A DNA stretch of 64,000 nucleotides from Alphaproteobacteria bacterium (GTDB lineage Bacteria; Pseudomonadota; Alphaproteobacteria; SP197), in contig CBDCEA010000004.1 in assembly GCA_965215635.1 (NCBI GenBank), positions 48,492-112,491 of the forward strand. The letters run 5' to 3'. A model generated the notes under the pieces. That model was not told the origin of the DNA, searched no databases, and worked only from the letters and a program-made list of their open reading frames with translations. The translations under genes were made by a program, and so were the position numbers. This document shows positions 4,133 to 57,311 of this stretch, piece by piece; within the stretch, counting starts at the first letter, position 1, and every line of letters begins with the position of its first letter.

Positions 4133-5532
4133 GCTTTTGACGGTCGGACCATGTCGGCGGGCCTCACCCAGGAATCGAAGTCCTCGGCGCTGACGAGGCC
4201 GAGCGAGACCGCGGCGTCCTTCAGGGTCGTAGCTTCGGCATGCGCCTTCTTCGCGATCTTCGCGGCATTGTCGTAGCCGATGTGGGGATTGAGGGCCGTC
4301 ACCAGCATCAGCGAGCGCTGCATCATCTCCTCGATGCGATTCCTGTCAGCCTCAATGCCGGCGACACAGCGGTCCGTGAAACTCGCCGAGGCATCACCGA
4401 GAAGACGGGCGGAGCGCAGCACGTTGAAGACCATCACGGGCTTGAAGACATTGAGCTCGAAGTGTCCCTGTGCACCCGCGATCGTGACGGCTGTGTGGTT
4501 GCCCATGATCTCGGCGCAGACCATGGTGAGCGCCTCGCACTGGGTGGGGTTGACCTTGCCCGGCATGATCGAGCTTCCCGGTTCGTTGGCCGGCAGCAAG
4601 AGTTCACCGATGCCGCTGCGCGGGCCCGACGCCAACAGCCGGATGTCGTTCGCGATCTTGTTGAGGCTCACCGCGATGACATTGAGCGCTCCGGAGACCT
4701 CGACCATGGCATCGTGGGCTGCGAGGGCTTCGAACTTGTTGTCCGCCGTGACGAAGGGAAGGCCGGTCATTGCAGCAACGCTCCTGGCGAACGCGGTGTC
4801 GAATCCGGCCGGGCTGTTGAGTCCGGTGCCGACGGCGGTGCCGCCCATGGCGAGACGCAGGAGTCGGGGCATCGTTCCCCTGACGCGTTCGATTCCGAGT
4901 TCCACCTGCTTGGCGTAGCCCGAGAATTCCTGACCCAGTGTCAGCGGTGTCGCGTCCTGGAGATGGGTCCGGCCGATCTTGACGATGTCCCCGAACCCCC
5001 TTGCCTTGGCGTCGAGGGCCCCGTGAAGACGTTCGAGAGACACCAAGAGTCGCCTGTCGATCTCGATGGAGACGGCGATGTGCATGGCCGTCGGGAAGCC
5101 GTCGTTGGACGACTGGCTCATGTTGACGTGATCGTTGGGGTGGACCGGTGACTTCGAACCGAGCTCACCCCCGAGGAGCTCGATCGCGCGGTTGGCGATG
5201 ACCTCGTTGACATTCATGTTCGTCTGGGTGCCCGATCCGGTCTGCCAGACAACAAGCGGAAAGTGATCGCTCAGCCTGCCATCGATCACCTCGTCAGCAG
5301 CCTGCCGGATTGCTCCTGCCAGCTGCGGGTCCAGCCGTCGCGCCGACTCATTGACCTCGGCTGCCGTCTTCTTGACGTAACCGAAGGCCCGGATCAGCTG
5401 ATCGGGCATCCGTTCGGATTGACCGCCGATCGGGAAATTCTCGAGCGACCTCTGGGTCTGGGCTCCCCAGTACCGCTGGGAAGGAACGTTGATGTCCCCG
5501 ATGGAATCGGATTCGATACGGTAATCGGACAT
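4129..5532 (-). CDS. fumC: fumarate hydratase class II
   Basis: N-terminus [29 protein letters not shown] and the [16 protein letters not shown] signature loop. 467 aa. Confidence 0.9.
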
Positions 5533-5614: not shown

Positions 5615-6070
5615 CTATTTCCTGCGGAAGGTATCGAGGGAGACAACGGTTCCGGCAGCGCTCTGCTCACCGGCGGTCGTGTCCTCGGTGGGCGCGTCTT
5701 CCCCGTCACTCCCATCCGGGGTCACCCTGAAGTTCAGTCCGAATTTGACGCTCGGATCGGCAAACGACGTGATCGCGGTCCAGGGAACACCGAGCTCGTG
5801 GGGCATGCGGTCGAACGAGAGGCCGATGGAGAAGCCCTCGTCGCCGACCTCGAGGTTCCAGAACTGATTCTGGATCACGATCGTGATTTCCTCGGGATAC
5901 CGGGCCTTCAGGGCCTTCGCAATTCTCACGCCGGGATGGTCCGTGCGGAAGGTGATATAGAAGTGATGGTCGCCGGGCAGGCCATCGCCCGCCGCGATCT
6001 CGAGGGCATGGGTGACGACGCTGCGCAACGCGTGATCGACCAGCAGTCCATAGTGGATCGATTCGCTCAT
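5615..6070 (-). CDS. sspB: ClpXP protease specificity-enhancing factor SspB (alphaproteobacterial type)
   Basis: Collinear with Caulobacter SspB-alpha: GEHHFYITF, IVLQHQFW-like IVIQNQFWNLEVGDEGFSIGLSF, and an acidic unstructured tail. Confidence 0.75.
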   Translation of the reverse strand: MSESIHYGLLVDHALRSVVTHALEIAAGDGLPGDHHFYITFRTDHPGVRIAKALKARYPEEITIVIQNQFWNLEVGDEGFSIGLSFDRMPHELGVPWTAITSFADPSVKFGLNFRVTPDGSDGEDAPTEDTTAGEQSAAGTVVSLDTFRRK

Positions 6071-6093
6071 CGGACGCCCGGGACGGTGAAGCA

Positions 6094-6131
6094 GGAAAAA
6101 GCGGAGGGCTTCTGTTGCCCGGTGCCCTCCG
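6094..6131 (-). terminator. Intrinsic-terminator-like hairpin (GGAGGGC/GCCCTCC stem then a T5 run on the minus strand)
   Basis: Read on the minus strand: GGAGGGCACCGGGCAACAGAAGCCCTCCGCTTTTTCC. Downstream of lipoprotein copy 1, about 25 nt upstream of the sspB ATG. Confidence 0.45.
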
Positions 6132-6391
6132 AACCGCGCTTTCCGCTTATGCAGCGATAGCGTACGCCTCGTTGTCGTTGGCGATTGTATGTTTGACCCG
6201 ATAACGGCGGAATCATACCGGACGAAAACCGAACCTTTACCACGCGCGTCGATCCTGGTTCGCCCCCATAAGGTTTATGGTGGAGGCGGCGGGTACTGCC
6301 CCCGCGTCCGCAACGTCTATTCCGAGCGGCGTTTATCGCCATAGCCCAGCAAGCCGGGCAACCGTTCATATAGTGCATCCGCACACCACTT

Positions 6392-7090
6392 TCAACCGTT
6401 GACGTCATCTGGTCCCGTGACCAGGCCGACTCTGCCCACCGCCACAATGAACGCTTGAGCGGCCCCCCGAAACTGGACGCCAGGTCCTTCGACGGCACCG
6501 ATTCGTGCCGCCTCGCGTTGCCTCTCGAACTCACGCAGTTCGGCGTCGCGCGCTTCGTCGATAGCGCGCGCCAGCGACTCGCAATCCTGCCAGTTCTCAT
6601 CACAAGACTGCCCCAACTCCATCGCCGCCTCTGCAGCCTCCCGCTCGATCCGTGTCCTCTGACGGTCGAAGAACGCATCGCGTTCGTTGGCATTGGAGAA
6701 CTCCTTTGGCACGAGAACAATCGTGACGCTCTCTGGATATTCGTTCATCACGCCCGAACTTGCATCGATCACCACGCCGATAACGCCCCCCAAAATAATG
6801 TTGCCAAACGTCATTGCCTGGAAGTCTGAAGAAAGGGAAGCGGCCCCATTGAAATACCTGTCCTTCTCACAAACAATGCTGATGTTATCCTTGCTTTTTT
6901 CTATCGATACCGTTCCCGGTGTGGGGTTCGCTACAGCGACCACCGAACCGTCCCGGGACAAGGTGCAGACAGCGTTCGGTGGTTCGGTAAGTACCGTCAC
7001 GGTCTGGTCGGTGCCCTCGATGATCGTCGCGCAGGCTCCCAGTACAAGCAACAAGGGGAGTATGCCCGTTACGGCCCACCGATGTTGCAT
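6392..7090 (-). CDS. Hypothetical lipoprotein (copy 1); carries a 31-aa C-terminal extension relative to copy 2
   Basis: Signal peptide with lipobox LVLGAC. Paralogous to the 17703-18308 protein. The stop position of copy 2 reads GGA here. Confidence 0.55.
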   Translation of the reverse strand: MQHRWAVTGILPLLLVLGACATIIEGTDQTVTVLTEPPNAVCTLSRDGSVVAVANPTPGTVSIEKSKDNISIVCEKDRYFNGAASLSSDFQAMTFGNIILGGVIGVVIDASSGVMNEYPESVTIVLVPKEFSNANERDAFFDRQRTRIEREAAEAAMELGQSCDENWQDCESLARAIDEARDAELREFERQREAARIGAVEGPGVQFRGAAQAFIVAVGRVGLVTGPDDVNG

Positions 7091-7116
7091 TGTCCCCCCC
7101 AGGTGCCGATATCAGC

Positions 7117-7164
7117 TCGCGAGACGATTCGTGTATCACGTCGCGAGACGATTCGTGTATCACG
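7117..7164. repeat. Perfect 24-bp tandem duplication (TCGCGAGACGATTCGTGTATCACG x2) just upstream of the lipoprotein copy 1 start
   Basis: Two exact adjacent copies. Copy 2 of the module has a single copy of the unit. Confidence 0.85.
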
Positions 7165-7767
7165 TGCGAGGATTTCCCATATGGCGACCTTCAGCCAGGT
7201 CGAGCGTGGCCCGGGATCGTTCAACGGGCGAGCCCGATGGGTTCTGCCACCATGCTCATGCCCGACACCGCAAAATCAGAGAGTCAACGGGACATGGTGG
7301 CATGCGGTATTGCCGGTCGTCTTCTCGCATGAGGGGCGATCCTGTCGTCATGTTGGGAGGTGCGTCGTTCTGAGGCGATCGATCCAAACACCCGACAGGT
7401 CGCTCAAACTCCAAGTTGTGTCATTCCCATGCGTCGAAGGACGCGGCGCGCGAACCGAGCCGTGTCCTGGTCCCGGCGCATTGCTGGTGGAGAGCGATAT
7501 CCTCCTGCGTGCACTGTCCGGTACCGCATGGTCACCCCTGCCTTCAGGCAGGGTTCCAGGATCCTCTGGATGAATCCTCACGCGCGTTATGTTCATGTTG
7601 ACGGACCTCCGTCGATGTCCGCCTTGCGAGCCCGGACGATACCGGAAACGCTCGGGCCGCCAAGGCCTTGACCACTGGAAACAACTCTCACCGAACAGCG
7701 CCGGAAGAGAGCTGACGCGAGCTGCGCAATTCAGCGTGCCGGAGGCGATAGCAGTATTCATCCGAGG

Positions 7768-8427
7768 TCATGGTGTACGGTTCATTATACGAAGGTGCCA
7801 GTCGCCCCAGTCCGCCCCCCCTTCGAACGCTGGATTTCGGCCTGTGCAGGCCGCTTCACCGTTCGGTTCCAGTTCGCAATCGGCGATGCCGCGATAAACG
7901 TAGGACCCGTCGGTGCAATACATATCTTCCCTGTCGTTGATCTGAAGCATTCCGCTCTCGAGATAGGTTGCCCACACTTCTCCTTCGCACTCCACGCCGT
8001 CAGTCATCACCAAGTGCTTTTCACCGTTGCCGTTCTCGTCGAAACACATTTCCAGTGATGCGACCTCAGTCACCTCATGTGTTTCGACGTCTTCCACGCT
8101 GAAGTCCGAAGCAAGAGACCAGCAGCCCTCGAGCGACGAAAGATCCTTCTGCGCCCACTTCTCCGCATCCAGCATGTCCGGGTCCGGTTCAGGTGGCGGT
8201 TGCAGTTCGGCGCGCAGTTCCGGAGGTGGTTGCAGTGGAAGATGGGGCGGGCAGGCGGGAAGTCCGACGAGGTGCCTCTCGAGTCCGCGCAGCCTGTCCT
8301 CGAGAACTGCGAGCCGTTCCAGTTCCTTCTCCAGTTCCGCCGCCATGGCGACATTCACTCTCATTGCAGCACTTTCAAAGGCGGCATTCAGCCTCAGGTC
8401 CTCAGGCTGGCGCGGCGTCGCCTGCAT
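7768..8427 (-). CDS. Hypothetical protein with coiled-coil, Pro-rich linker and Cys-rich C-terminal domain
   Basis: Lower-GC patch. The ORF reads protein-like from MQATPRQPEDLRLNAAFESAAMRVN onward. No recognisable family. The start is uncertain (8427, 8364 or 8349). Confidence 0.35.
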   Translation of the reverse strand: MQATPRQPEDLRLNAAFESAAMRVNVAMAAELEKELERLAVLEDRLRGLERHLVGLPACPPHLPLQPPPELRAELQPPPEPDPDMLDAEKWAQKDLSSLEGCWSLASDFSVEDVETHEVTEVASLEMCFDENGNGEKHLVMTDGVECEGEVWATYLESGMLQINDREDMYCTDGSYVYRGIADCELEPNGEAACTGRNPAFEGGADWGDWHLRIMNRTP

Positions 8428-8439
8428 CACCTGGCACAA

Positions 8440-9316
8440 GAACTTCAATGGCGAGGACTGGCCCCGCGATGCCTTCGGCACATGCGTGGTGCCGATCCAC
8501 GGCCCCGCAGAGACTGGATCGGCGACCGTCCGGCTGGCCGAGAAGCGTATCAGGCTGAGGACAGGGCTCGAGGTGCGCCAGATCCGACGCCTTCTCGACA
8601 ACGGGCGCCAGGTGCCATTGATCACCACTCACCCCGCGATGCCGATGGAAGAGGTCGCCGGCTCCATGTTCTCGCGCTGGTCCCAGGAGAACTTCTTCAA
8701 GTACATGCGCGACGCGTTCAACCTCGACGCGCTGCCGGACCACGCGCTCGAGCCGATCGATCCTGACGCCCGGGTCGTCAACCCCGCCCGCAGGACTGTC
8801 GAGAAGACCATCGCCACAGTCCGGTCGCGTCTCAAGAGCCTCCATCTGCGCATCGTCAGGGCGACGAAGAAGGGCAGGCCCATCGACGATCTCGTGGCCG
8901 GGGTCGGCGCCCTCGATGAAGAACTCGAGGCGTTCAAGGAGCAACGCAAGGACCTGCCGCGCCATGTTCGCGCCGGCGACCTCCCGGAGAACCAACGGCT
9001 CGACGCCCTGCCGGTCGCAAGGCGCCTCCTCCTCGATGTCATCCGCATGATGCCACCCGTGATCGAGGCACAGGGCAAGAAATCCAATGCCCGCAAATTG
9101 CTCGCAGCGCTGATGACGGCCGACGCCAACATCCTGCCGGATCCCGGAAACGGCATCCTCCGGGTCCAGATCCTGGGTCTTGCCAGGAACGCAGTCGACC
9201 AGGCGCTCCTGCCGTTGATCGATGAACTCAACCAGACAGAAACCGTCTGTCCGGGTACCAGCCTCCGCCTCGTCTACGAAATGGCAGGCACTTCACCCCA
9301 CAATGAGGTCACCTGA
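8440..9316 (+). pseudogene. C-terminal remnant of a DDE transposase (IS4/IS701-like signature)
   Basis: SRWSQENFFKYMRD fits the YREK-region motif R-x3-E-x6-K followed by a long tail. The N-terminal catalytic region is absent. The upstream part of the ORF is GC-rich nonsense overlapping the opposite-strand gene. Confidence 0.35.
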
Positions 9317-9768
9317 ATTGGACGAGGTCAGGAAGTCTGAGCCTGTCGAATAAGCTCATCGCCAAGTCATGACGCGAGCAGGGCAGGATTGGTTCCTGTC
9401 TTTCGGCGAGGCTGTCAACCGGAAACTGTTATGCCTTCCGGTCTCTTCCGTTGAGGATTTGCAAACGCCTTTGCCCCGAAATGGGTGAAATCCTGCAAAT
9501 TGGGTCGATGACATGAAACGGTAAGGCCAAGACTGGTCGCGGTCGCCGTTTGCGCGGTGACATCGAGCGTCCCGGCGTGGGCCATCTGGTGGTGGCTCGC
9601 GCATAACGGGTGAGCGCGGCGGACGGCGGTGCGCTGCGCAGCAGGGAAGGTGCTGCGAAACGCAGGCCGGGTGGACGGTGCAAGGGAAACCGGCAGGTCT
9701 GAGGGCAGGGTTGACAACAGACTTGTTGCCAACGATATTGATGCCAACAAAACCGTTGGAATAAAGAC

Positions 9769-11020
9769 ATGATCCGAAAAGGCGGAAGCAACTGGGTCGA
9801 CGGAGAGAACTTCTTCGATCGCGAGACGGAACTGGAAGCGCTGGAAGAGCGGGTGCGGGAAGGAACCCACACCCTGCTGACCGCACAACGGCGGATGGGC
9901 AAGACCAGCCTCGTGCGGGAGCTGCAGCGCCGCCTGGCCGAAACGGGAGACTTCGAGGTCGTCTTCGTCGATCTGGAGGCGGCCACCGATCCGGCCGATG
10001 CGATTGCTGAAATCGGGGTTCAGGTGAAGCCCGTGCGTGCTGCGTGGAATCATGACCGGCTTCGCGAATCTGGTGAGGAGCGCCGGCGGCCGGATCGAGG
10101 AACTGTCGGTTGCGGATCTGAAGGTGAAGCTGCGCGCCGGGATCGATGCAGGCAATTGGCCGCAAAGAGGTGACGCGATCTTTGCCGCCCTGGCGGAAAG
10201 CGGTCGGCCGGTCGTGCTCGCGATAGACGAGTTGCCGATTCTCGTAAACCGGCTGCTGAAGGACGAGACGGGGCGCATGACGCCGGAGGGGAAGCGGGAA
10301 GCAGACGCGTTCCTGAGCTGGCTGCGCAAGGTGGGGCAGTCCCATCGGGATCGGGTCACGCTGATCCTGTCGGGCAGCGTGAGCCTCGAGCCGCTGCTTG
10401 AACGGGCCGGGCTCAGCGCCCAGGCCAATATCTTTTCTCCCTACGACCTGAAACCGTGGAGCGAGGAAACGGCCGTTTCCTGCCTGGAGGCACTTGCCGA
10501 GTCGTATGAGGTAGGTCTTGCGCCGGAGGCCCGCAGGGACATGTGCCGCAGGCTGCGTTGCTGCATCCCGCACCATGTCCAGATGTTCTTCGACAGGATG
10601 CACGATCATCTGCGGCGCGCCGGGCGGAAGGACGCCTCGCCGGAAGATGTCGAATGGGTCTATGTGCGAGAGATGCAGGGCGTCCGGGGGCAGGTCGACC
10701 TGCAGCATTACGAGGGCCGGCTGGAGACGGTCCTCGGAAGAGCGGGGTACACGGTTGCGCTGGAGATTCTGACGGCAACGGCGGTCGACGGCGATATCGC
10801 CGCTGAAACGGTCGACCGGTACCGCAGCTGGTTCTCAACGCGCGACGCGCACGACGGAGACGGTGCTTCCGCGGTCGATCATGTGCTGCGCGTGCTGCAG
10901 CACGACGGCTACCTCGAACCCGGGGACGGCGGTTACCGGTTCGTTTCCGGTCTGCTCGAGGATTGGTGGCGGGCGCGCTACGGGCAGAGGTTCGTGCCCG
11001 TGTTCGACCGGCAGCGGTAA
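9769..11020 (+). pseudogene. PF01637-like (archaeal-type) AAA ATPase, interrupted by a +1/-1 frameshift near 10025-10037
   Basis: Frame 1 carries FFDRETELEALEERVREGTHTLLTAQRRMGKTSLVREL (Walker A). Frame 2 from 10028 carries Walker B VVLAIDELP and the rest, about 417 aa if repaired. The frame 1 continuation after the shift is Arg-rich nonsense. Confidence 0.55.
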
Positions 11021-11037
11021 GAACGGGAGTCGGGCCG

Positions 11038-14000
11038 ATGGCTGTGACCGCCAGGAAGTACAATCCGGGCTTTCTCTCGATCGACGAACTGGTCGCGACC
11101 TTCTGCGTCCGGACGGCCGAGTACGAATCCCTGATCGAGGCGCTGCGCGAATGCTCGGGCAGCGCCAACACCCATCAGATCGTGATCGGGCCGCGCGGCA
11201 GCGGAAAGACGAGCCTCCTGCTGCGGGTCGCTGCGGAGGCGCTGCGCGATGCCGATCTCTCGGCGCGCTTCTTCCCGATTGTGTTCGCGGAGGAAAGCTA
11301 CGAGGTCTCGACCGCCGGCGAGTTCTGGCTCGAATGCCTTTCCCGGCTGGCCGATCAGGCGCCGCGCCGGGAAGGCGGTGTCGACTTGCAACGCACCTTC
11401 GAGGAGCTGCGCACCGTCCATGACGACCGGGCGCTGGAAGATCGGTGCCTCGGGGTGCTGCAAGACTTCGCCGACCGGGAAAAGAAGCGCGTCGTGCTGA
11501 TCGTCGAGAACCTGAACATGATGTTCAGGGACATGGGCGACGACAATGCGGGCTGGCGGCTGCGTAAGGCGCTGCAGACCGAACCGCGGATCGTTCTGCT
11601 GGCGAGCGCGACCAGCCGGTTCGACCAGATGAACGATCCGAAGGAAGCGCTCTACGAGCTCTTCCGGGTGATCCGGTTGCGTCCCCTCGACACGGAAGGC
11701 TGCGCGACCTTGTGGCAGACAGTGTCGGGGCAGGCGCGGGCGCCGCAGACGATCCAGGCGCTGCGGATTCTCACTGGCGGCAGTCCCAGGCTGCTGACCA
11801 TCGCCGCCCGTTTCGGCGCGAACCTGTCATTCCGCGAGCTGATGGCCGATCTTCTCGATCTGGTCGATGACCATACCGAGTATTTCAAGAGTCACCTCGA
11901 TGCGCTCCCGGCGCAGGAGCGAAAGGTGTATCTCGCCCTTGCCGATCTCTGGAAACCGGCGAACGCGCGCGAGATCGCGGACCGGGCCAGGCTCGGGACC
12001 AGCAAATGCAGTGCTCAGCTTGCCCGTCTGGTCGACAAGGGCGCTGTGGAAGTGACCGGCGGCAGCGCGCGGCGCAAGCTCTATTACCTGACCGAGCGGC
12101 TCTACAACATCTACTACCTGATGCGCCGGGCGCGCGGACCGGCGCCGCTGATCGATGCGCTGATCCGTTTCATGGAGGCCTACTACTCCACCGACGAGCT
12201 GAGGGAGTTCGGCGCCCGCATGGCGCGGGAAGCGCTGGGGTTCGACGGCGGTGCGTTGGCGATCTACCGGATGGCCTTCGAGCGTCTTGTCGGACTGCCG
12301 TCCCTCGAAGCGCACCGCGAGGAGCTGCTTTCGCTAGCGTCGCCTGCCTTTGCGTATGCGCCCAGTGAGTTTTCTGCGGTATCCCCGGCACTGTCGGCCG
12401 CGAGGGAGCTCTTGGGGAAAGCGCTGGCGCTCGCGGAAAGCGGTCGGTTGCAGGACGCCGTGGCGGCCTGGGACGAGGTAATCCGGAGGTTCGGGGCAAG
12501 CGATGCGCCGGCGGATCTCGAACAGGTGTCGCTGGCGCTCGTCAACAAGGGGAAGGCGTTGGGCGGGCTGGGAAGAGCGGAAGAAGCTCTGGCCGTGCTG
12601 GACGACGTGGTGCGGCGTTTCGGGGTGGACAACGGAGAAGGCCACCCTCTGGCGGTGGCGACGGCGCTCGCCGGCAAGGGCGGAATGCTGAGCAACCTGG
12701 ACCGCCACACGGAAGCGCTTACAGCCTGGAAGGAGGTCGCGCGGCGCTTCGGCAAGAGTCGGGTGCCGGCGCTCGAGGTGCTGGTGGTGAACGCGATGAT
12801 CGGGACGGCGGTCGCGCTGAACACGTTGAACCGGCACCGGGAAGCCCTGCAGGCCTGCGACGAAGTGTTGGAACGCTTCGGCAAGAGCGGTTCGCCGGCG
12901 CTTGACGGTGAATTGGCGGCAGCCATGGTCGGACGGGGTCACGCGCTGATCGCGCTGGGCCGAGTCGATGAGGCGATAAGCGCCTGGGGTGCCGTGGTGG
13001 AGCGTTTCGGGAAGAGCGACTCTCTCAGAATCGTCGAACAGGTGGCCTCGGCGCTTGCGAACATAGGCACGGCGCTGTTCCAGGCGGGCCGGTTGGAGGA
13101 AGCGCTCGCCGCGTTCGATGGGGTCGTGCAAAGCTACACGGCAAACGATGCGCCGATCCTCCGGGAGGTGATAGCGCGCTGTTTCGTCAACAGAGGCAAC
13201 GTGCTGGCCGCGCTGAAGCGGGAAACGGAAGCGCTCTCGTCGTGGGAAGAAGCGATCAGGGGCTTCGAGGCGGGCGGTTTGCCGGAGGTGGCAGAACCGT
13301 TTTGCAACGCGCTGATGAACAGGGCGGCGGCGCTGCACCATGCGGGAAGGCCGGAGGAAGCGCTGGATATGTGGGGCGGCGTGGTGGAACGCTTCGGGGC
13401 CGACGACCGGCCCGCACTCCTCACCATGGTCGCGAATGCCCAGACTCACAGGGGCGCCTTGCTGGAACAGTTGGGCCGATACGAGGAGGCACTCGCGGTC
13501 TGGCAGGAGGTTGAAGACCGTTTCGGGAACAGCGACATGCCGGAATGGGTCGCGCTGATCGCAAGCTGCTTCCAGCACAGGTGCGCCGACCTGTTCGAGC
13601 TGAACCGGACGGAAGAGGCGCTCGCAACGTGCGACCGGGCGATCGACCGATTCGGGCAAAGCCCCGTACCGGCGGTTCTTGAGACAGTCGCGGGGATATT
13701 TCTGAACAAGGGAATCGTGCTCGTCACTGCACACAGGAACGAGGAGGCGCTGGCGGTCTGGGACGAGATCGAACGGCGTTTCGGAAACAACTACGAGCCG
13801 GAAATTTTGAAGCACGTTGCCTCGGCCCTCGTCAGCAAGGGTACGACGCTGGTCCATATGAACAGGGCGGAGGACGCGGTTGGGGTATGGGGCGACGTCG
13901 TGCGCCGGTTCGGGGAGGGCGACTCACCCCTGTATCACGAGGAGATTGCGACGTCTGTCCTCAACAGGGTGGTGGTGCTGGGCTTGTTGAACCGGCCGGA

Positions 14001-14670
14001 CGAGGCGCTTGAGGCCTGTGACGAGGCGCTCCGGCGATTCGGGAGCGGTGAAGACCCTTACGGTGTTGAGGCAGTCGCACAAACTCTCGTTAGTAAGGGT
14101 TCGCTCCTTGCCGGTCTGGACCGGACCGAGGAGGCGTTCGCTGCGTGGGACGAGGTTGTCCGGCGCTTCGAGGCGAGCGATGAGCCGGCGCTTCGCGACG
14201 CGGCGGAATCGGCGCTGTGCCGGCGGGCACAGCACGAATTGACCGAAGGCCGGGCAAGGGACGCCGTCGCGTTTCTCGACCGTGCGCTGCTGCAGGGGCG
14301 GGCGGGAATTCCAGACAGCAGACTGCAGGGCCATCTGATCCGGGCCCGGGCGCACTTGGCGGAAGGCGATGGCGAAGCATGCGCCGGGGATGTCGAGACG
14401 ACACTGTCGATCCTTCCCGAATTGAACATGTTGCCGAGGGACGTGCTGGTGGCTCTGGCCGATCTCTCGGCGGGTGTCGGGCTGGAGAGGATGTGCGGTC
14501 TGATCAAGTCGTCGCCCGCTGACGATCTCCTGCTTCCGTTGAGGACGGCGCTGGAGCGCGAACTTGGGTTGGAGCCGAGGGTGGCCAGGGAAGTCGAAGA
14601 GATTGCCGAAGACATACGCCGGGAATTGCTTGTCGGGCGCAAGACTGAGGAGCAACGACGGACGGCTTGA
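11038..14670 (+). CDS. P-loop NTPase (PF01637/STAND-like) fused to a ~620-aa array of ~14 tandem 44-aa TPR-like repeats
   Basis: Walker A GPRGSGKTSLLL, Walker B-like VVLIVENLN, sensor-like RIVLLASATSRF. Then repeats of the pattern EEALAxWDEVxxRFGxSDxPxxxExVAxALxNKGxxL. SD GGAG sits 8 nt before the ATG at 11038. 17 nt downstream of the preceding ATPase. Confidence 0.7.
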   Translation: MAVTARKYNPGFLSIDELVATFCVRTAEYESLIEALRECSGSANTHQIVIGPRGSGKTSLLLRVAAEALRDADLSARFFPIVFAEESYEVSTAGEFWLECLSRLADQAPRREGGVDLQRTFEELRTVHDDRALEDRCLGVLQDFADREKKRVVLIVENLNMMFRDMGDDNAGWRLRKALQTEPRIVLLASATSRFDQMNDPKEALYELFRVIRLRPLDTEGCATLWQTVSGQARAPQTIQALRILTGGSPRLLTIAARFGANLSFRELMADLLDLVDDHTEYFKSHLDALPAQERKVYLALADLWKPANAREIADRARLGTSKCSAQLARLVDKGAVEVTGGSARRKLYYLTERLYNIYYLMRRARGPAPLIDALIRFMEAYYSTDELREFGARMAREALGFDGGALAIYRMAFERLVGLPSLEAHREELLSLASPAFAYAPSEFSAVSPALSAARELLGKALALAESGRLQDAVAAWDEVIRRFGASDAPADLEQVSLALVNKGKALGGLGRAEEALAVLDDVVRRFGVDNGEGHPLAVATALAGKGGMLSNLDRHTEALTAWKEVARRFGKSRVPALEVLVVNAMIGTAVALNTLNRHREALQACDEVLERFGKSGSPALDGELAAAMVGRGHALIALGRVDEAISAWGAVVERFGKSDSLRIVEQVASALANIGTALFQAGRLEEALAAFDGVVQSYTANDAPILREVIARCFVNRGNVLAALKRETEALSSWEEAIRGFEAGGLPEVAEPFCNALMNRAAALHHAGRPEEALDMWGGVVERFGADDRPALLTMVANAQTHRGALLEQLGRYEEALAVWQEVEDRFGNSDMPEWVALIASCFQHRCADLFELNRTEEALATCDRAIDRFGQSPVPAVLETVAGIFLNKGIVLVTAHRNEEALAVWDEIERRFGNNYEPEILKHVASALVSKGTTLVHMNRAEDAVGVWGDVVRRFGEGDSPLYHEEIATSVLNRVVVLGLLNRPDEALEACDEALRRFGSGEDPYGVEAVAQTLVSKGSLLAGLDRTEEAFAAWDEVVRRFEASDEPALRDAAESALCRRAQHELTEGRARDAVAFLDRALLQGRAGIPDSRLQGHLIRARAHLAEGDGEACAGDVETTLSILPELNMLPRDVLVALADLSAGVGLERMCGLIKSSPADDLLLPLRTALERELGLEPRVAREVEEIAEDIRRELLVGRKTEEQRRTA

Positions 14671-14689
14671 TCGTTTCAGTCAGAGTCGA

Positions 14690-14899
14690 CCCGACATGCC
14701 GGACGATCCATGGCCAATCGACTTCGCCGAGCGGTGCATGGACGGCAACGAGCCGGACGCGGTGAACGATGCGGGACAGCAGGATGGTCATTGCCTGGCT
14801 GTCCTTGCCACCGATGGTGTTGATCGCCACGAAGGCTCCGGCCCGGATCATGTCCCGGCAGTCCGAAGGGACACGGATGTCGGCGAGGTCGGTGGCCAT
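14690..14899 (-). pseudogene. N-terminal fragment of a PAPS-reductase-like PP-loop protein, truncated where it meets the 3' end of the NTPase-TPR gene
   Basis: MATDLADIRVPSDCRDMIRAGAFVAINTIGGKDSQAMTILL carries the SGGKDS PP-loop. The reading frame then runs into the convergent 11038-14670 gene, so only ~70 aa are present. Confidence 0.4.
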
Positions 14900-15345
14900 G
14901 GATGGGTCTCCCAGTTGGCGGTGCGGGGGTCACACTCCGGCCCCAGGCGTCGCCCGGAGGACGTCGGCCGCCACCTCCGGGGGGCGTGCTACTCGGAACC
15001 GGAAGACCTACTCGTTGGATGAAGCGCACCGTCCGGGGCCGTCCCGGGGACGCGGGGCCTGGATTCCCGAAGGGGCGGAATCCGTGCTACCTCTAAGACC
15101 GCTTCGGCCCCCTTTCGGCCGGGAGCAGCGACAACGGGCGGGCAGCGAGGGACATGGGGTTGAAACCGGGCGATGTCGATGCGATGACGGGTGCTGGCGG
15201 GAGCTTCTCTGGATGGAACAACCAATTGAGGGAACGCTACGGGTCAGGCACGTCAGACTCGGGTCGGTGCACGGCGCTCGGCAAAACAAACAGAAACGCT
15301 GCAGAGGTGACAACGATGCTAGAAAACCAGCATATCGTTTCAGAT

Positions 15346-16338
15346 AGGAACCAGTATCGAGAGCGGCTCGAAGGCTACCTCGAAACGGTTCTTCAGCTCG
15401 GTGTTTCCTTGCAGGACTAGGACGGGCACGAGACGCTGCCTGTCTTTCTGACCCGACTCTACCGGTTCTTCGAGACTCGGATCGGTCAGTCGCCGCTTCT
15501 CTTCATGTCTGCGAGGCAAACCGGGGAACACACTCCGGCAGAGATCGCGAAGCACCTTGATCTGGCGAAGCCGGAGTTCGACGGAATAGTCGTCTATTCA
15601 GCCGAACGAATTGCTGCGGGCTTTCGCGCACGGCTTGTTGCAGCTGGCGTGGCCTTCGCCGTTCCCGGCAATCAGCTGTTTGTTCCGGAACTCGCAACGG
15701 ACTTGCGCGAGCATTTCAGGGGGCCGAAGCCGGAGCGGCCCGACAAGCTATCGCCATCGGCTCAACTGGTTCTGTTTTTCCACCTCCTCCAAGGTGAGCA
15801 GGCGCGGTCATGGACGCCAACCGAGCTCACAGAACCACTTCGGTATTCGATCATGACCATGGGCCGGGCTTTTGATGAGCTTGCCGCCGTCGGACTTGCC
15901 CGGATCGAGCGACGTGGCCGCAAGAAGCTCTTGTGGTTCCGCGCGGAGGGGCGCTTGCTGATTGATACTGCAAAGACGCTCCTGATTCGTCCTGAACGTC
16001 GGCTAGACCACATTCGCTGGCTGAAGGAGCCGCCTGATTTGCCGCTGGCTGGCGAGCATGCCCTCGCGCGGCTCAGCGATCTCAGCCCGCCAGCGGTGCC
16101 ACCGGTTTACGCAGTGACGCCGGAACAGATGCGAGATTTCCTCGCGGTTGGGTGGGCGGATCTGAGGGAGGCGGACTACGACTCGGACGGAACACTTGCG
16201 ACTTGGCGATACGACCCGCAGGTATTGTCACGGAACGATTTGGTCGATCCGCTCTCTCTCTTCGCACAGTTTTGGGATGACCCCGACGAACGCTTGTCCA
16301 TGGCCGTCGATCGACTGCTGGAGCGATGGACATGGTGA
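15346..16338 (+). pseudogene. AbiEi-like wHTH antitoxin candidate, interrupted by an in-frame TAG at 15418-15420 (alternatively an intact 277-aa product from ATG 15505)
   Basis: Frame 1 is open 15154-16338 except for a single TAG. Sequence on both sides of the TAG reads protein-like (MLENQHIVSDRNQYRERLEGYLETVLQLGVSLQD / DGHETLPVFLTRLYRFFETR). There is a low-GC leader before ATG 15346. Winged-helix segment SIMTMGRAFDELAAVGLARIERRGRKKLLWF. The last 13 nt overlap the downstream gene. Confidence 0.4.
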
Positions 16339-16974
16339 GAGGGCTTGACCGGTTCCGAGAGCATTTCGCCGGGCACGAAGAAAGCTATGCGCTGATTGGC
16401 GGTGCTGCCTGCGATATCCTCTTCGGAGAAGCCGGGCTTCCGTTTCGGGCCACCAGGGACTTCGACATTGTGCTATGCGTCGAGGTCGTCAGTGCCGAAT
16501 TTGGCACGGGCTTTGCAGATTTCCTGGAAGCAGGTCGATATCGGGCCAGGGAGCGCTCGACCGGCAGGCGGGAATTCTCCCGCTTTCATCGCCCTGCAGA
16601 CGAAACGTTCCCGGCAATGATTGAACTCTTCGCCCGACGACCGGATACACTGAATAAGCCTTATCGACGAGACGATCCTTATCCCGTTTAAAGCACGTGC
16701 TTTTCTCGATCCTTCCGGACGCAAGGCGAATGGCGAAGACGTTGATGCCCGGCACATACGAAAGCACCGCGCTGATGTGTTCCGGCTCGCCCAGCTGTTG
16801 CCGGGCAGCGGCAACCTGCCCCTCGCCGACCCCTTACGGGCTGACCTGGCCGCGTTTCTCGATCAGGTCGCAAGCGATCCGGACTTCGATTACAAGGCGT
16901 TAAAGCTACCACTGCCGCTGGCGGATGCGACGGCAATACTGGATGGGTACTATCAGCTCAGCTCTTCTGCCTAG
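16326..16974 (+). pseudogene. AbiEii-type minimal nucleotidyltransferase toxin candidate, frameshifted near 16654-16691
   Basis: The N-terminal frame has the NTase motif LIGGAACDILFGEAGLPFRATRDFDIVL (hGG...R.T.DFD). After the stop at 16691 the protein continues in another frame from 16654: ISLIDETILIPFKARAFLDPSGRKANGEDVDARHIRKHRADVFRLAQLL... to 16974. Confidence 0.5.
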
Positions 16975-17217
16975 ATCGTGCCCCGCAGACTGGTGTGCAC
17001 TCATCGGCAAAGGACGGCAGCATTGCGGGTCTTGTATGAGGTTGCCTTCGCTGCATTGAATGGTTGCGAGTAACGGCCCTGTTCTGGACGCCTGATAGCG
17101 CTTTTGTTGCCTGGATGGTTCGTATCCTGTGGAGACCGGGATCGAAGACGCAACCCTCAGCGACGCGGAATCTGGAGGCGCCCGGACGACTGATATTTTG
17201 CCGCGGTTCCGATTGAA

Positions 17218-17597
17218 CACAGGCTTGTGCACATCCAGAGCATGCGTCTTTCCTCCACAGAATCCGCCAGCGCATGCCTTTTCTGGCCGACTGGCGCATG
17301 CTCTGCCTTCGGAAAGTTCACTGACGTGATGAAGCTGGTTGCTCCGGGCGTGCCCGGGAGTCAGACCGCATGGAGGCAAGGGTCGATCGAACGGAGTAGG
17401 GCGTCAGGATGATAACCGCGGACCAGCGCGAGCAGATCAGAACGCAGCGTGCCTCAAGGAACGATAACCGGCGTGTCGTCAGCCTGGCGCTGGAGGAGAT
17501 CCTGTACGAACCCATGGCGGTGCTCGATCACGGTTTCGTGCGTGTCGTCGACTACATGGGCAATGACGATGCCATCGTGCAGGCGGCCCGCGTGTCA
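17218..17597 (+). pseudogene. Displaced 5' fragment of thyX (promoter region plus first ~63 codons); ~85% identical to 20226-20620
   Basis: Nucleotide alignment with the intact thyX 5' region. Homology stops abruptly at 17597, where the lipoprotein module begins. Confidence 0.6.
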
Positions 17598-17602
17598 CAC
17601 GT

Positions 17603-18590
17603 AGTTCATCCGCTCATCCGCACACCACTTGCAACTGTTGAAGGCTCCTGGCCATCATCACAATGAACGCCTGAGCGGGGCTGCCCGAAACCTGACACCA
17701 GATCACTCGGCAGCGCCGATTCGAGCCGCCTTACGCTGCCTTTCAAGCTCACGCAGTTCGGCGTCGCGCGCTTCCTCGATAGCGCGTACCAGCGACTCGC
17801 ACTCCTGCCTGTTCCCTTCACAAGACTGCTGCAACGTAGCCACCATCCCAGCGGCCTCCCGCTCGATCCGTGTCCGCTGGCGGTCGAAGAACGCATCGCG
17901 GTCGTTGGCGGTGGAGAACGCTTCCGGCGCGAGAACAATCGTGACGCTGGCCGGGTATTCGTTCATCGCACCCGAGCTTGCATCGATGGCCAGGCCGATA
18001 AAGCCGCCGATAAGAATGTTGCCAAACGTCATTGCCTGGAAGTCTGAAGAAAGAGCAGCGGCGCCATTGAAGTACCCGTCCTTCTCACAAATGATGCCGA
18101 TGTTATCCTTGCTTTTTTCTACCGATACCGTCCCCGGTGTAGGATTCACCACAGCGACCGTCGCTTCGTCCTGGGACAAGGTGCAGACAGCGTTCGGTGG
18201 TTCGGTAAGTACCGTCACGGTCTGATCGGTGCCCTCGACGATCGTCGCGCAGGCTCCCAGAACAAGCGACAAAAGGAGTATGCCCGTTACGGCCCACCGA
18301 TGTTGCATTGCACCCTCCAGGTGTCGATATCTGCTCGCGAGACGATTCGTTTATCACGTGTAACCAGGATTTCCCATGTGGCACCCTTCAGCCAGGTTGA
18401 GCGTGGCCCGGGATCGCTCAACGGGCAGGCCCGATGGGTTCTGCCACCATGATCATGTCCGACACCGCGAAATCAGAGAGTCAACGGGACATGGTGGCAT
18501 GCGATATTGCCGACCCTGTCGTCATGCTGGAGAGGGGCGTCGGCCCGAGCCGGTCGATCCAGACACCCGCCGGGTCCGCGAAGGCGACGT
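17603..18590. repeat. Copy 2 of the duplicated lipoprotein module
   Basis: About 85% nucleotide identity to 6362-7410. The left boundary coincides with the thyX-fragment junction. Confidence 0.8.
17703..18308 (-). CDS. Hypothetical lipoprotein (copy 2, 201 aa)
   Basis: Signal peptide plus lipobox LVLGAC. Paralogue of the 6392-7090 protein. Confidence 0.55.
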   Translation of the reverse strand: MQHRWAVTGILLLSLVLGACATIVEGTDQTVTVLTEPPNAVCTLSQDEATVAVVNPTPGTVSVEKSKDNIGIICEKDGYFNGAAALSSDFQAMTFGNILIGGFIGLAIDASSGAMNEYPASVTIVLAPEAFSTANDRDAFFDRQRTRIEREAAGMVATLQQSCEGNRQECESLVRAIEEARDAELRELERQRKAARIGAAE

Positions 18591-18792
18591 GGGATGGGAT
18601 CCGATTCACCTTCCGCGTTCCGCATCCGGGCCGTCTCCACGTCATCCAACCATCCGAGCCTCTTGCAATATTCCTGACCCCGAGGGCCGGTGAGCCCGGA
18701 TCGGGCAGTTGACCGCAGACACCTCTGCGCCTGGAAGCCGGAATCCGTGGATTCGCGGTGGCTCGCCGAGGAATTGAGAACAAACGAGGAAC

Positions 18793-20200
18793 TTTGCGGG
18801 CCTCAGGGCAAGCCTCTCCAGGCCGTCCTCTTCAAGAGGGCGACCAGAGGTCGAAGCGGTCTGTCGGAGCCGCCCTATGGGGCGGCGAGACGTATCAACT
18901 GGTCGACCGTCAGGGCAAGGATACCGAACATGAGATGGCAGGCGACCTTCGCGTGTCCCCGGACGCGGACATGGCGCCCGCCGAACTCGTCCTTGAGGCG
19001 GGCGTTGGTCCTCTCGACACCGGAACGGATCCGGAAACGCACGCTCCCGGGGTCGACATGGCCCGCCGCACGCCGGGCCCGGGCCTCCCGGTCCAGCTCC
19101 TCCTTGAGTTCCTTGTCCCGGCGCGGGTTGACGTCGATGATCGGAACATGGCCAAGGCGTTCACTTGTCTGGTGGATCTCCCTGGCGTCATAGGCCGAGT
19201 CCATGAGATCGTAGAGGTTGGTCACACGCCCGGCGGTCATCATCGCCAGCGGGATCGCGACCTGGCTGTCATGGATAGATGCCGAAGTGAGGATGGCACT
19301 CAGCGGCACTCCGCAGTCCGCCGTGTCGATATGCAGTTTGTAACCTTGCCAGGTCGTCTGGAACCCCTTGGCGTTCTTCTTGGCCCCATGATTGCAGAGC
19401 TTCGGCAGCTCGGCGAGCATCTCATCGAGACTCATGCCGTTGACCTGCTGTTCGAGACGGCTCGGTTTTTTCGTCTTCTCCTCGCCCTTAGCGTCGTCGG
19501 CCGCGCTTGCGTTTCGGTGTCTTGTCGGCCTCCGGCTTCGGTGCCGGCTTCTCCCGGGCCTCGATGGCCGTCGAGTCCCTCGACACGTGGCCGATGAGCT
19601 CGTCGCCCATCGCCTCTTCAACCAGGGCCTCGTGCATCCTCTCCGGAATACGGAACTGCGAGAACTCGGCAAACGCCCGTGAAAACGTCGCCTCGCTCGG
19701 GATCTCCACGACACGCGACCAGCCGCACAGTCTCCGCAGCGTCGGGTCCACCTTGAGCCTGTCGATCAGATGGCGGGTCGTCGGCAGATCCCACACGGCC
19801 TTGGCGATGAAGCCGCGGGCCAGCGCCCGGCGATCCTCCTGGGGCCGTCCCGGACCGTTCCAGACCTCACCGATGAAGCGCTCCACCCTGACGAGATCGA
19901 GAGCCGTCACGAAGCGTTTGTGCACCTCCAGGAGAGGTCCAACCTCCTCGGCCAGCGCAGGGAAAAGTTCCCCTTGAAATCGGTGCCAGATGTCCGATAG
20001 GGTCGAACCAAGGGTCATCGGGGTCGCCTCCGCGGTATCTTGGGGATTAGGAAAATCCAATATACCACCAGGCGGCCCCGGAACCCAGGCGCCTTACACC
20101 AAAATCAGCCCCGACAAGGCAAAAAACCTGTCATTCCGACAGTTTTGCAAGAGCCTCATCTGACACCGAACGTGGAATCACCGTCCAAGAGGTCCAACGC
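18793..20200 (-). mobile_element. IS5-family insertion sequence; ends approximate
   Basis: Contains a two-frame transposase. Imperfect terminal matches (GAGGAACTTTGCGG near 18797; GGTGAACTTCGGCG on the complement near 20200). The ends were not confirmed by clean inverted repeats or a target-site duplication. Confidence 0.5.
18875..20060 (-). CDS. IS5-family DDE transposase split into two overlapping frames (N-terminal part 19488-20060, C-terminal DDE part 18875-19714)
   Basis: The N-terminal part has the InsH-like DNA-binding region. The C-terminal part has HIDTADCGVPL...IHDSQVAIPL...ERTNARLKDEFGGRHVRVRG. The frames overlap by 226 nt and there is an A6 run near the junction. Either a programmed frameshift or an inactivating indel. 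Confidence 0.6.
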
Positions 20201-20433
20201 CGAAGTTCACCTGGGGAATGCGGGTTAAACACAGACTTGTGCACACAGTTGTCTTCAAACTCCCGTTTTTCTTCGAAATATAGTCTGCCAGCGCATGCCA
20301 TTTCTGCCCGACCGGCGCATGCTCTGCTTTCGGACAGTTCACTGACGTGACGAATCCGATCGCTCCGGTCGTCAATGAATCGACAACCGCGTGGAGGCAA
20401 GGGTCGATCGAACGAAGGAAGGCGTCAGCAGGG

Positions 20434-21363
20434 ATGATGATAACTGCGGACCAGCGCGAACAGATCACAACGCAGCGTGCCTCAAGGAACGATACCCGGC
20501 GTGTCGTCAGTCCGGCGCTGGAGGAGCTCATGTACGAGCCCATGGCGGTGCTCGATCACGGTTTCGTGCGTGTCGTCGACTACATGGGCAATGATGATGC
20601 CATCGTGCAGGCGGCTCGGGTGTCATACGGTACGGGGACAAAGTCGGTGCGCGGCGATGCCGGTCTGATCGGCTACCTGATGCGTCACAGGCACACGACA
20701 CCCTTCGAGATGTGCGAGATCAAGTACCATGTGAAGCTTCCGGTGTTCGTGGCCCGCCAGTGGATTCGCCACCGCACCGCCAACGTCAACGAGTATTCTG
20801 CGCGCTATTCGATCCTGGACCGGGAATTCTATATCCCGGCACCCGAGAGCCTGGCTGCACAGTCATCGATCAACGGGCAGGGCAGGGGCCAACTGCTCGA
20901 AGGAGACGAGGCGCAATCTGTACTGCAGATCCTGAAGGAGGATGCCGGCAAGGCCTGCGACGATTACGAGCACATGCTGAACGAAGGCGAGCATGCCGAT
21001 CCTTGCCGTCTCGGATTGGCACGGGAACTCGCCAGGATCAATCTGCCTCTGGGGATCTATACACAGTGGTACTGGAAGACCGATCTTCACAATCTCTTCC
21101 ACTTCCTGGCGCTGAGGGCCGATTCCCATGCCCAGTACGAGATCCGCGTCTATGCCGAAGCCATGCTGGAAACCGTCAAGGCCTGGGTGCCGCTCGCCTA
21201 TGAGGCCTTCGTCGAGTGCCGGTTCGGGGGCGCGGAACTGACGGCAGGCCAGCTCGCCGTGCTGCGCCGCATGTTGAAGGGCGAGGAGGTGACGCTCGAG
21301 ACGAGCGGGCTCGGCAAGAGGATGTGGGACGAGCTTCAGGCGGTGCTGGACGCTACTCGATGA
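20434..21363 (+). CDS. thyX: FAD-dependent thymidylate synthase
   Basis: [43 protein letters not shown] is the ThyX signature (RHRxxS-like). The 5' ~190 nt overlaps the duplicated thyX segment. Confidence 0.85.
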
Positions 21364-43611: not shown

Positions 43612-45568
<1,957 letters not shown>

Positions 45569-45615
45569 GTTGCAACCTCCTGATTGAGAGTGGTTTCCTG
45601 CAAAGTTGAGACGTG

Positions 45616-55230: not shown

Positions 55231-57269
<2,039 letters not shown>

Positions 57270-57311
57270 GGGCTCTTTCCCTTTCCTGAACGTTATGCCG
57301 GTGTCTGCCGA

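Follow-up and report, generated by a model that had tools for sequence, protein, structure and literature searches.

A strain-variable interval between sspB and thyX with two direct repeat pairs and a single tandem joint in an uncultured alphaproteobacterium

How do two conserved neighbouring genes come to be separated by some 14 kb of DNA that holds a displaced 5′ fragment of one of them? The question is raised by a stretch of 64,000 nt, here called the window, from an Alphaproteobacteria bacterium (GTDB SP197; assembly GCA_965215635.1, contig CBDCEA010000004.1, positions 48,492–112,491 of the forward strand). In it, sspB and thyX flank two diverged copies of a small lipoprotein gene (lipo), a partial second copy of thyX (thyX′), an insertion sequence (IS) of the IS5 family and a block of further genes that we call the cargo. 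A sequence-only reading of the window had taken the interval for an old element integrated site-specifically into the 5′ end of thyX. We find instead that the layout is a head-to-tail duplication of one lipo–spacer–thyX 5′ unit, in which 17601/17602 is the only new joint, and that the interval as a whole differs from strain to strain.

Gapped self-BLASTN of the window recovered two repeat pairs, one formed by the lipo module (6432–7401 against 17648–18576; 82.4% identity over 973 columns, including 47 gap columns; E = 0) and one by the thyX 5′ region (17263–17601 against 20284–20629; 86.8% over 348 columns; E = 7e-117). An ungapped repeat search of the window recovered both pairs as well, and alignment with MAFFT carried the lipo-module homology to around 6368 and 17603 and the thyX-leader homology to around 17212 and 20230. 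The two pairs are thus real, and the sequence-only reading had placed them correctly to about 10 nt. Both are direct, with compatible spacings of 11.2 kb (lipo) and 3.0 kb (thyX); neither the ungapped search nor self-BLASTN found inverted repeats in the window. By tblastn, ThyX residues 1–64 are encoded again at 17409–17600 (90.6% identity, E = 9e-33), with no further ThyX copy elsewhere in the window. The longest near-identical stretch between the thyX copies is conserved thyX coding sequence, as expected from selection alone. The features of the interval are listed below, where up1 and up2 denote the stretches of roughly 300 bp that lie upstream of the two lipo genes and open reading frame is abbreviated to ORF.

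5615–6070, minus strand: sspB, the left conserved flank gene (Pfam SspB, E = 8e-41), with an identical protein in strains carrying different islands.
6071–6391: spacer between sspB and lipo1, without a thyX remnant.
6392–7090, minus strand: lipo1, a small lipoprotein gene of 232 amino acids with lipobox LGAC, a resident-type allele (from the translation).
6368–7401: repeat module copy 1, consisting of the lipo 3′ flank, the ORF and about 310 bp of lipo upstream sequence (up1).
7768–8175, minus strand: C-terminal fragment of an SrfA-family gene, a 135-amino-acid ORF (NCBIfam SrfA_fam, E = 8e-17, profile positions 307–425 of 438).
8345–9316, plus strand: 3′ remnant of a Transposase_29 gene (Pfam PF21804, E = 3e-37, profile positions 254–560 of 562).
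9769–11020, plus strand: P-loop NTPase gene (ATPase_2/AAA_22/AAA_16), frameshifted here and split into ORFs 9769–10173 and 10037–11020.
11038–14670, plus strand: STAND NTPase of 1210 amino acids (Pfam AAA_16, winged helix, TPR repeats with 129-nt periodicity; repeat family D1/D2).
14696–15022, 15154–15420, 15505–16338 and 16326–16691, plus strand: four small or medium ORFs with no assigned function (gene calls in sister contigs).
16978–17408, plus strand: right end of the cargo and displaced copy of the thyX leader, 70–76% identical to the variant B sequence just upstream of thyX.
17409–17601, plus strand: thyX′, a pseudogene fragment of codons 1–64 (tblastn, 90.6% over 64 amino acids).
17601–17603: the single new joint, where the start of thyX codon 65 meets a point about 25 nt past the lipo stop codon.
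17603–18576: repeat module copy 2, consisting of the lipo2 3′ flank, the ORF and up2.
17703–18308, minus strand: lipo2, an intact, diverged lipoprotein gene of 201 amino acids with lipobox LGAC (from the translation).
18655–20157, minus strand: IS5-family element with two overlapping transposase ORFs, 19488–20060 and 18875–19714 (Pfam DDE_Tnp_1 and DUF772).
20158–20436, plus strand: native thyX upstream region and leader, the far-upstream part being of the 'empty-site' type found in relative L104.
20437–21363, plus strand: intact thyX, the right conserved flank gene, with a 308-amino-acid product on record (Pfam Thy1, E = 3e-56).

The plus strand reads sspB, lipo1, up1, some 9.6 kb of cargo, the displaced thyX leader, thyX codons 1–64, lipo2, up2, the IS5-family element, the native thyX leader and thyX. 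The two copies of the unit lie in the same orientation, and one joint links the end of one to the start of the other. The spacer of unit 1 is filled by the cargo; that of unit 2 is of the 'empty' type, bears the IS5-family element and runs into functional thyX. The lipo repeats bracket the cargo together with thyX′, the thyX repeats bracket lipo2 and the IS5-family element only (some 3 kb, of which about 1.5 kb remain once the IS is left out), and no repeat pair brackets the full 14 kb. What had been taken for a common start point of the two lipo modules is the end of their pairwise homology at one illegitimate joint.

The same joint is found in the relatives L095, L096, L097 and L098. Because five or more independent assemblies show it, one diverged lineage with mutations of its own among them, the structure is not an assembly artefact. 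The window copy of thyX′ has its conserved SYG motif altered by a Tyr-to-His substitution and bears an 8-bp duplication at the joint, and the L098 copy shows a Tyr-to-Cys substitution and a 69-bp deletion between 10-bp repeats. thyX′ is thus a dead fragment that has been decaying independently in two lineages. For annotation, thyX is intact and lipo2 is a real second lipoprotein gene, the 85-amino-acid ORF at 17409–17666 is a pseudogene fragment, and the IS5-family element is a recent secondary insertion.

In one strain the joint itself has been hit by an element. In the sister strain L096 (10708–12482), a 1.77-kb IS sits exactly at the junction of thyX′ and lipo2 (window 17601/17607) with a 6-bp TAGTTC target duplication, and it encodes a 468-amino-acid transposase-like ORF with a weak DDE_Tnp_1_6 match. 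The 8-bp tandem duplication in the window (TCATCCGC) lies at the same spot and might be the footprint of a past insertion.

We then compared the interval among relatives. A scan of GTDB species representatives returned nothing closer than 78% ThyX identity, and close relatives were obtained only by exact-protein look-ups in metagenome assemblies. In most distant alphaproteobacterial relatives sspB (minus strand) and thyX (plus strand) are neighbours 400–600 bp apart, and in some they are separated by 1.7–6 kb; judged by this gene order, their adjacency is probably the ancestral state. Closer relatives fall into the following states.

Sister strains (L083/L091/L095, L084/L092/L096, L088/L094/L107 and L097): 99.6–99.9% identical, same structure.
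Variant B (L081, L082, L086/L093 and L087): left flank 99.7–100% identical, synonymous divergence (dS) of core genes 0–0.02; one lipo, about 6.5 kb of different cargo, no thyX fragment.
Variant C (L085): like the window up to 14797, with different genes beyond, including a ParB_N gene.
L098/L102/L103 lineage: core dS 0.09–0.18; same architecture and same joint, no IS5-family element.
L104: core dS 0.13–0.24; sspB, lipo and thyX only.
L105 and L106: divergence at the level of L104; one lipo and 2.7 kb of cargo.

The interval is accessory, mosaic and strain-variable, as the sequence-only reading had held: the same flanks enclose different cargo, even where, as in variant B, those flanks are nearly identical. 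Relatives of the kind it had predicted also exist, in the distant species with sspB next to thyX and in L104 with its single lipo between them. The L098/L102 relative, whose lineage is about 6% diverged from the window in core genes, carries the same content, duplicates and joint, an observation that the same reading had named as one that would speak against it. The lipo–spacer–thyX unit is single-copy in L104, L105/L106 and variant B, and neither a thyX fragment nor a second lipo occurs in these resolved alternative alleles (L085 is not traceable to thyX). The spacer between lipo and thyX is therefore a multi-allele recombination hotspot, and the locus offers a natural series at one small hotspot of an uncultured genus: empty, small cargo, alternative cargo, and duplicated and filled.

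Two observations concern the limits of this spacer. The thyX leaders (20230–20436 and 17212–17408) contain blocks kept in all lineages of the clade, namely AACACAGNCTTGTGCACAC and GCCAGCGCATGCC...CTGGCGCATGCTCTGC...TTCACTGACGTG, and the right boundary of every cargo allele coincides with the left edge of the first conserved block. These blocks are clade-specific, since 35 more distant relatives lack them upstream of thyX. A lipo gene 75–76% identical at the protein level occurs in the more distant L099 (8310–8915) and L100 (10001–10606), between a 249-amino-acid ORF and an MmcB-like gene; as these copies are not at sspB or thyX, the presence of lipo between the two genes in this clade is itself a secondary acquisition.

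Recombination at the locus is recent as well as old. Against the L098 lineage, flanks are 90–96% identical, whereas cargo at 7720–12680 and 14680–17000 is mostly 98–100% identical (about 92–94% across 10680–11180); thyX′, lipo2 and up2 reach 95.6–98.4%, the proximal thyX leader 85.5% and the TPR half of the STAND gene 88–91%. These values indicate that cargo was recently exchanged between lineages. Within the STAND gene, aligned in frame, dS is 0.022 in the NTPase half and 0.233 in the TPR half, a tenfold rise that points to an allele swap inside the gene. Positive selection on the TPR half was considered and rejected, the ratio of nonsynonymous to synonymous divergence (dN/dS) being about 0.25 in both halves. 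The swapped, sensor-type half spans 12679–14430 within a block otherwise 98–100% identical, and exchange of this kind may be eased by the 129-nt (43-amino-acid) periodicity of the repeats. In variant B the sequence upstream of lipo is a hybrid between the up1 type and the up2 type, and the lipo signal-peptide region has been shuffled between copies and lineages.

The IS5-family element (about 1.5 kb) has a DDE_Tnp_1 transposase, terminal inverted repeats GAG(C/G)CTCTTGCAA and a 3-bp ATC target duplication. L098 has the uninterrupted site at the same position, which marks the element as a recent secondary insertion.

Two strata of divergence separate the duplicated copies. In the comparison of lipo1 with lipo2, dS is 0.37–0.44 over codons 68–201, and this level continues through the 3′ flank up to the joint; over codons 1–67 it is 0.16, and a 147-nt block of the upstream region is 93% identical. 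Because core dS among the sampled lineages is only 0.09–0.24, the old stratum predates these lineages and the young one is about as old as their radiation. lipo1 is 96.4–100% identical to the single-copy lipo of variant B, L102, L104, L105 and L089. The lipo1-type alleles from six sources are 96.4–100% identical among themselves and the two lipo2 alleles 97.2%, with 85–87% between types. When fixed differences between the types were polarised, the outgroups shared the state of lipo2 at 20 and that of lipo1 at 18. The types are therefore reciprocally monophyletic, an assignment based on these counts and not on bootstrap values. Both copies are under purifying selection (dN/dS 0.2–0.4; 0.36 for lipo2 against its L098 orthologue). 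The copies do not coalesce more recently with each other than with the orthologues of other lineages, lipo2 lying outside all lipo1-type alleles. In thyX′, 13 of 193 nt differ from the thyX of the window, 7 of them synonymously. The earlier argument that the copies are too diverged for a recent in-situ duplication accordingly stands for the 3′ two-thirds of lipo2; thyX′ taken alone is compatible with an in-situ origin.

On balance, we regard the interval as probably a flexible genomic island in the divergent-promoter spacer between lipo and thyX, with one fossil tandem joint. Its cargo would be exchanged between strains and lineages by ordinary homologous recombination, with lipo and its upstream region as the left arm and the thyX leader and 5′ coding region as the right arm. 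A single illegitimate joint between the start of thyX codon 65 and the point about 25 nt past the lipo stop would have created both repeat pairs. We infer that this joint formed between two diverged alleles, a 'filled' one beside an 'empty' one, by one-ended homology-facilitated illegitimate recombination: incoming DNA from a related lineage would have been homologous in the flank at one end and joined illegitimately at the other, leaving thyX intact and a 5′ thyX fragment stranded beside a foreign lipo allele, presumably lipo2. Gene conversion and crossovers, between the copies and with other lineages, would later have homogenised the 5′ third of lipo, its upstream region and the 5′ part of thyX. 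The cargo would then have been swapped between lineages, and variant B would have replaced the whole island and lost the duplication. The geometry fits such an event, with one side of the joint highly diverged, and the joint has mutated since. An integration-like repeat pattern can thus arise without an integrase, one illegitimate joint and repeated homologous exchange being enough.

Several observations weigh against this explanation. The joint is old and altered, with the 8-bp duplication here and other bases in L098, and because it has mutated, any original microhomology is unreadable. The 13 differences between thyX′ and the thyX of the window compare with 11 from L098 and 16 from L104, and with 17 between the window and L104 thyX genes themselves; thyX′ thus lies within the alleles of the clade, and an age like that of the lineage radiation would also fit duplication in situ. 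A tract at 6220–6930, which includes the 3′ part of lipo1, is 97–100% identical among lineages (dS 0.05–0.09, against 0.13–0.23 in the flank), so that lipo1, and not lipo2, could be the replaced allele. Among 118 homologues, no lineage has a lipo2-type gene as the sole copy at the locus, and hence no donor was identified. Much of the history of the locus has been overwritten by recombination.

Some of these points would fit another account. In it, an 'empty' unit was duplicated in tandem in situ not long before the lineages of the window and of L098 diverged, and unit 1 received its cargo afterwards; a double crossover then exchanged the 3′ part of lipo1 for a diverged allele that has spread through the genus, and no foreign DNA took part in forming the joint. 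The young stratum fits it well, since the dS of 0.16 in lipo codons 1–67 and the 7 synonymous differences in the 64 codons of thyX′ match the inter-lineage core dS of 0.14–0.17. Only 3 of 124 coding positions separate thyX′ from thyX in the L098 genome; across lineages, the lipo1 3′ tract is far better conserved than its neighbouring sequence; and lipo2 has the usual family length of 201 amino acids, the lipo1-type alleles having C-terminal extensions. This account, however, requires that a lipo1 3′ allele was imported from outside the clade and spread to at least five lineages, where a foreign lipo2 needs one event, and the divergence of lipo2 reaches through its 3′ flank to the joint, as expected if diverged DNA came with the joint. 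We favour the capture of diverged alleles because one import suffices and because diverged DNA abuts the joint, and consider duplication in situ possible, if rather unlikely. Two other origins were tried and rejected. thyX′ and lipo2 do not form one contiguous foreign piece, as thyX′ and its leader resemble resident 'filled' alleles (the variant B and L104/L105 states). Nor was lipo2 inherited vertically with lipo1 coming from an L104-like lineage, as dS between lipo2 and the L104 lipo is about 0.4, far above the core value of about 0.17 between the window and L104.

A 14-kb integrative element inserted site-specifically into the 5′ end of thyX, supplying a new promoter and 5′ part and since deprived of its integrase, would account for the displaced fragment beside an intact thyX and for an interval that some relatives lack. 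The fragment, however, is found 11 kb into the region, away from the sspB end, where blastn-short and tblastn with the thyX leader and ThyX gave only chance-level matches in 6071–6391, and the thyX repeats enclose nothing but lipo2 and the IS5-family element. In variant B and L105/L106 the same spacer is filled by other cargo and no thyX fragment is present, from which it follows that cargo enters the spacer and not thyX. The repeats are long (340–970 bp) and diverged, with no clear identical core, and a text search found no literature report of thyX as an attachment site. No integrase was found among the screened ORFs of 6100–20226 (Pfam, NCBIfam and PADLOC), where the scans recovered just the Transposase_29 remnant and IS transposases, in agreement with the sequence-only reading, and none is annotated in the precomputed Pfam matches for the spacer of any variant, where the only recombinase-like gene is an rve-type IS transposase in one strain. 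We therefore consider such an element extremely improbable. Somewhat less improbable, though still very doubtful, is RecA-dependent looping: the direct lipo repeats of about 1 kb would excise a circle of cargo, thyX′ and lipo2 that re-enters any lipo-bearing locus by a single crossover. This scheme predicts the strata, with the lipo2 3′ part and the joint travelling with the island (old), the lipo1 3′ part belonging to the host and the lipo 5′ third and upstream region being mosaic, and it fits an island 96–100% identical between lineages whose cores are about 6% apart. But no circular form or collapsed junction was observed, no transfer route for a circle is indicated, and the most recent exchange block (98–100%) ends near 17000, with thyX′, lipo2 and up2 at only 95.6–98.4%, for which a double crossover suffices. 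Also unlikely, if a little less so, is the more far-reaching idea that the lipo and thyX 5′ arms make the island mobile without a recombinase of its own, carrying an uncharacterised immune-type NTPase/STAND module in which the TPR half behaves as an exchangeable cassette; recombinase-free mobility of this kind would account for the passage of the joint and lipo2 from lineage to lineage together with the cargo.

The flexible island with a captured allele that we favour adds one more case to kinds of events already known. Islands and integration hotspots lying between conserved core genes include replacement-type islands and the defence-island hotspots described in Pseudomonas, Vibrio and E. coli pangenomes. 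The present locus resembles them in that the same core flanks carry different cargo in near-identical strains, empty sites exist, the cargo is rich in ISs, transposase debris and immune-sensor-type NTPase genes, and the cargo is more similar between lineages than is the core genome. It differs in that the hotspot is a divergent-promoter spacer of a few hundred base pairs and its flanking arms carry a fossil tandem duplication, and, compared with defence-island hotspots, in that the cargo gives only weak PADLOC matches. Homology-facilitated illegitimate recombination combines one homologous anchor with one illegitimate join and occurs in naturally transformable bacteria. The locus has the marks of an illegitimate tandem duplication, with head-to-tail copies, a single joint between two unrelated sequences (one within thyX, the other downstream of lipo), neither terminal repeats nor a target-site duplication, and an intact essential gene; one copy is also far more diverged than the core genome. 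Here, later mutation of the joint prevents a base-by-base reconstruction of the event, no donor lineage is among those sampled, and the host is uncultured. Integrative elements that carry a replacement gene segment in their attachment site, attP, classically target the 3′ ends of tRNA and tmRNA genes. The likeness to these is confined to the displaced partial gene copy beside the intact gene; here no integrase was found in the interval, the repeats do not bracket the region, no conserved identical core is apparent, and alternative cargo alleles lack the gene fragment. The element at 18655–20157 is an ordinary member of the IS5 family, with a DUF772 N-terminal ORF overlapping a DDE_Tnp_1 ORF, a length of about 1.5 kb, inverted repeats and a short duplication; it is lineage-specific, a secondary insertion that played no role in how the duplication arose.

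Of the contents listed by the sequence-only reading, the Transposase_29 remnant (8027–9316), the two NTPase genes and the IS5-family element were borne out. A toxin–antitoxin pair and a PAPS-reductase fragment found no support in Pfam, NCBIfam or PADLOC, and only a GGKDS motif, of PP-loop type, in the ORF at 14504–14899 (minus strand) hints at the latter. In variant C (L085, 368–1440) this ORF is preceded by a ParB_N-domain gene, an arrangement resembling an IbrB/IbrA-like pair (ParB with a PAPS-reductase-like protein), with no significant profile search. The four ORFs between 14696 and 16691 matched nothing in Pfam, NCBIfam or PADLOC.

The two-gene STAND NTPase module, the main cargo and a widespread one, is the only lead here with wider potential. 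Its first gene, a 418-amino-acid NTPase, is intact in sister L095 and belongs to a family of more than 2000 homologues, many 70–92% identical and annotated in different taxa. The frameshift seen in the window recurs in ERZ25072760 contig_25, and ERZ25069046 and ERZ26167216 have the gene unbroken. A 74%-identical NTPase copy in another genome is likewise followed directly by the gene for a protein with AAA_16, winged helix-turn-helix and TPR domains, in a different neighbourhood and with no adjoining transposase; because the pairing is the same in another genome and context, the NTPase and STAND genes form a conserved, mobile two-gene module. PADLOC returned only weak matches, mad8 for both NTPases (E = 1e-4 to 4e-6) and PDC-M32A and PDC-S06 for two variant B genes. 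A defence role of the pair is plausible.

Elsewhere in the cargo, the L102 lineage retains about 1.1 kb more of the Transposase_29 gene, and homologues of the SrfA-like fragment adjoin lipo in variants B and L105 (E = 4e-15 for the variant B homologue). The region of this fragment (window 7768–8628, minus strand; L081 7182–7904) is 83–99% identical between alleles that otherwise differ.

Base composition does not set the island apart. The sequence-only reading had proposed comparing the G+C content of 8–17 kb with the flanks, and we found 0.60–0.67 in the cargo, not distinct from 0.62–0.66 in the flanks, with slightly lower values (0.58–0.61) only in the lipo modules and at 15–18.5 kb. An Rfam scan of 16900–20700 gave no match. 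The flank genes fumC (4129–5532), sspB, thyX and apbC were confirmed with Pfam. The window holds a second diverged duplicate, 43661–45569 against 55310–57270 (77% over 1963 nt), which corresponds to two groEL (Cpn60) paralogues:

43612–45246, minus strand: groEL (Cpn60) paralogue.
55231–57063, minus strand: groEL (Cpn60) paralogue.

Multiple groEL copies are common in alphaproteobacteria, and this pair looks ordinary.

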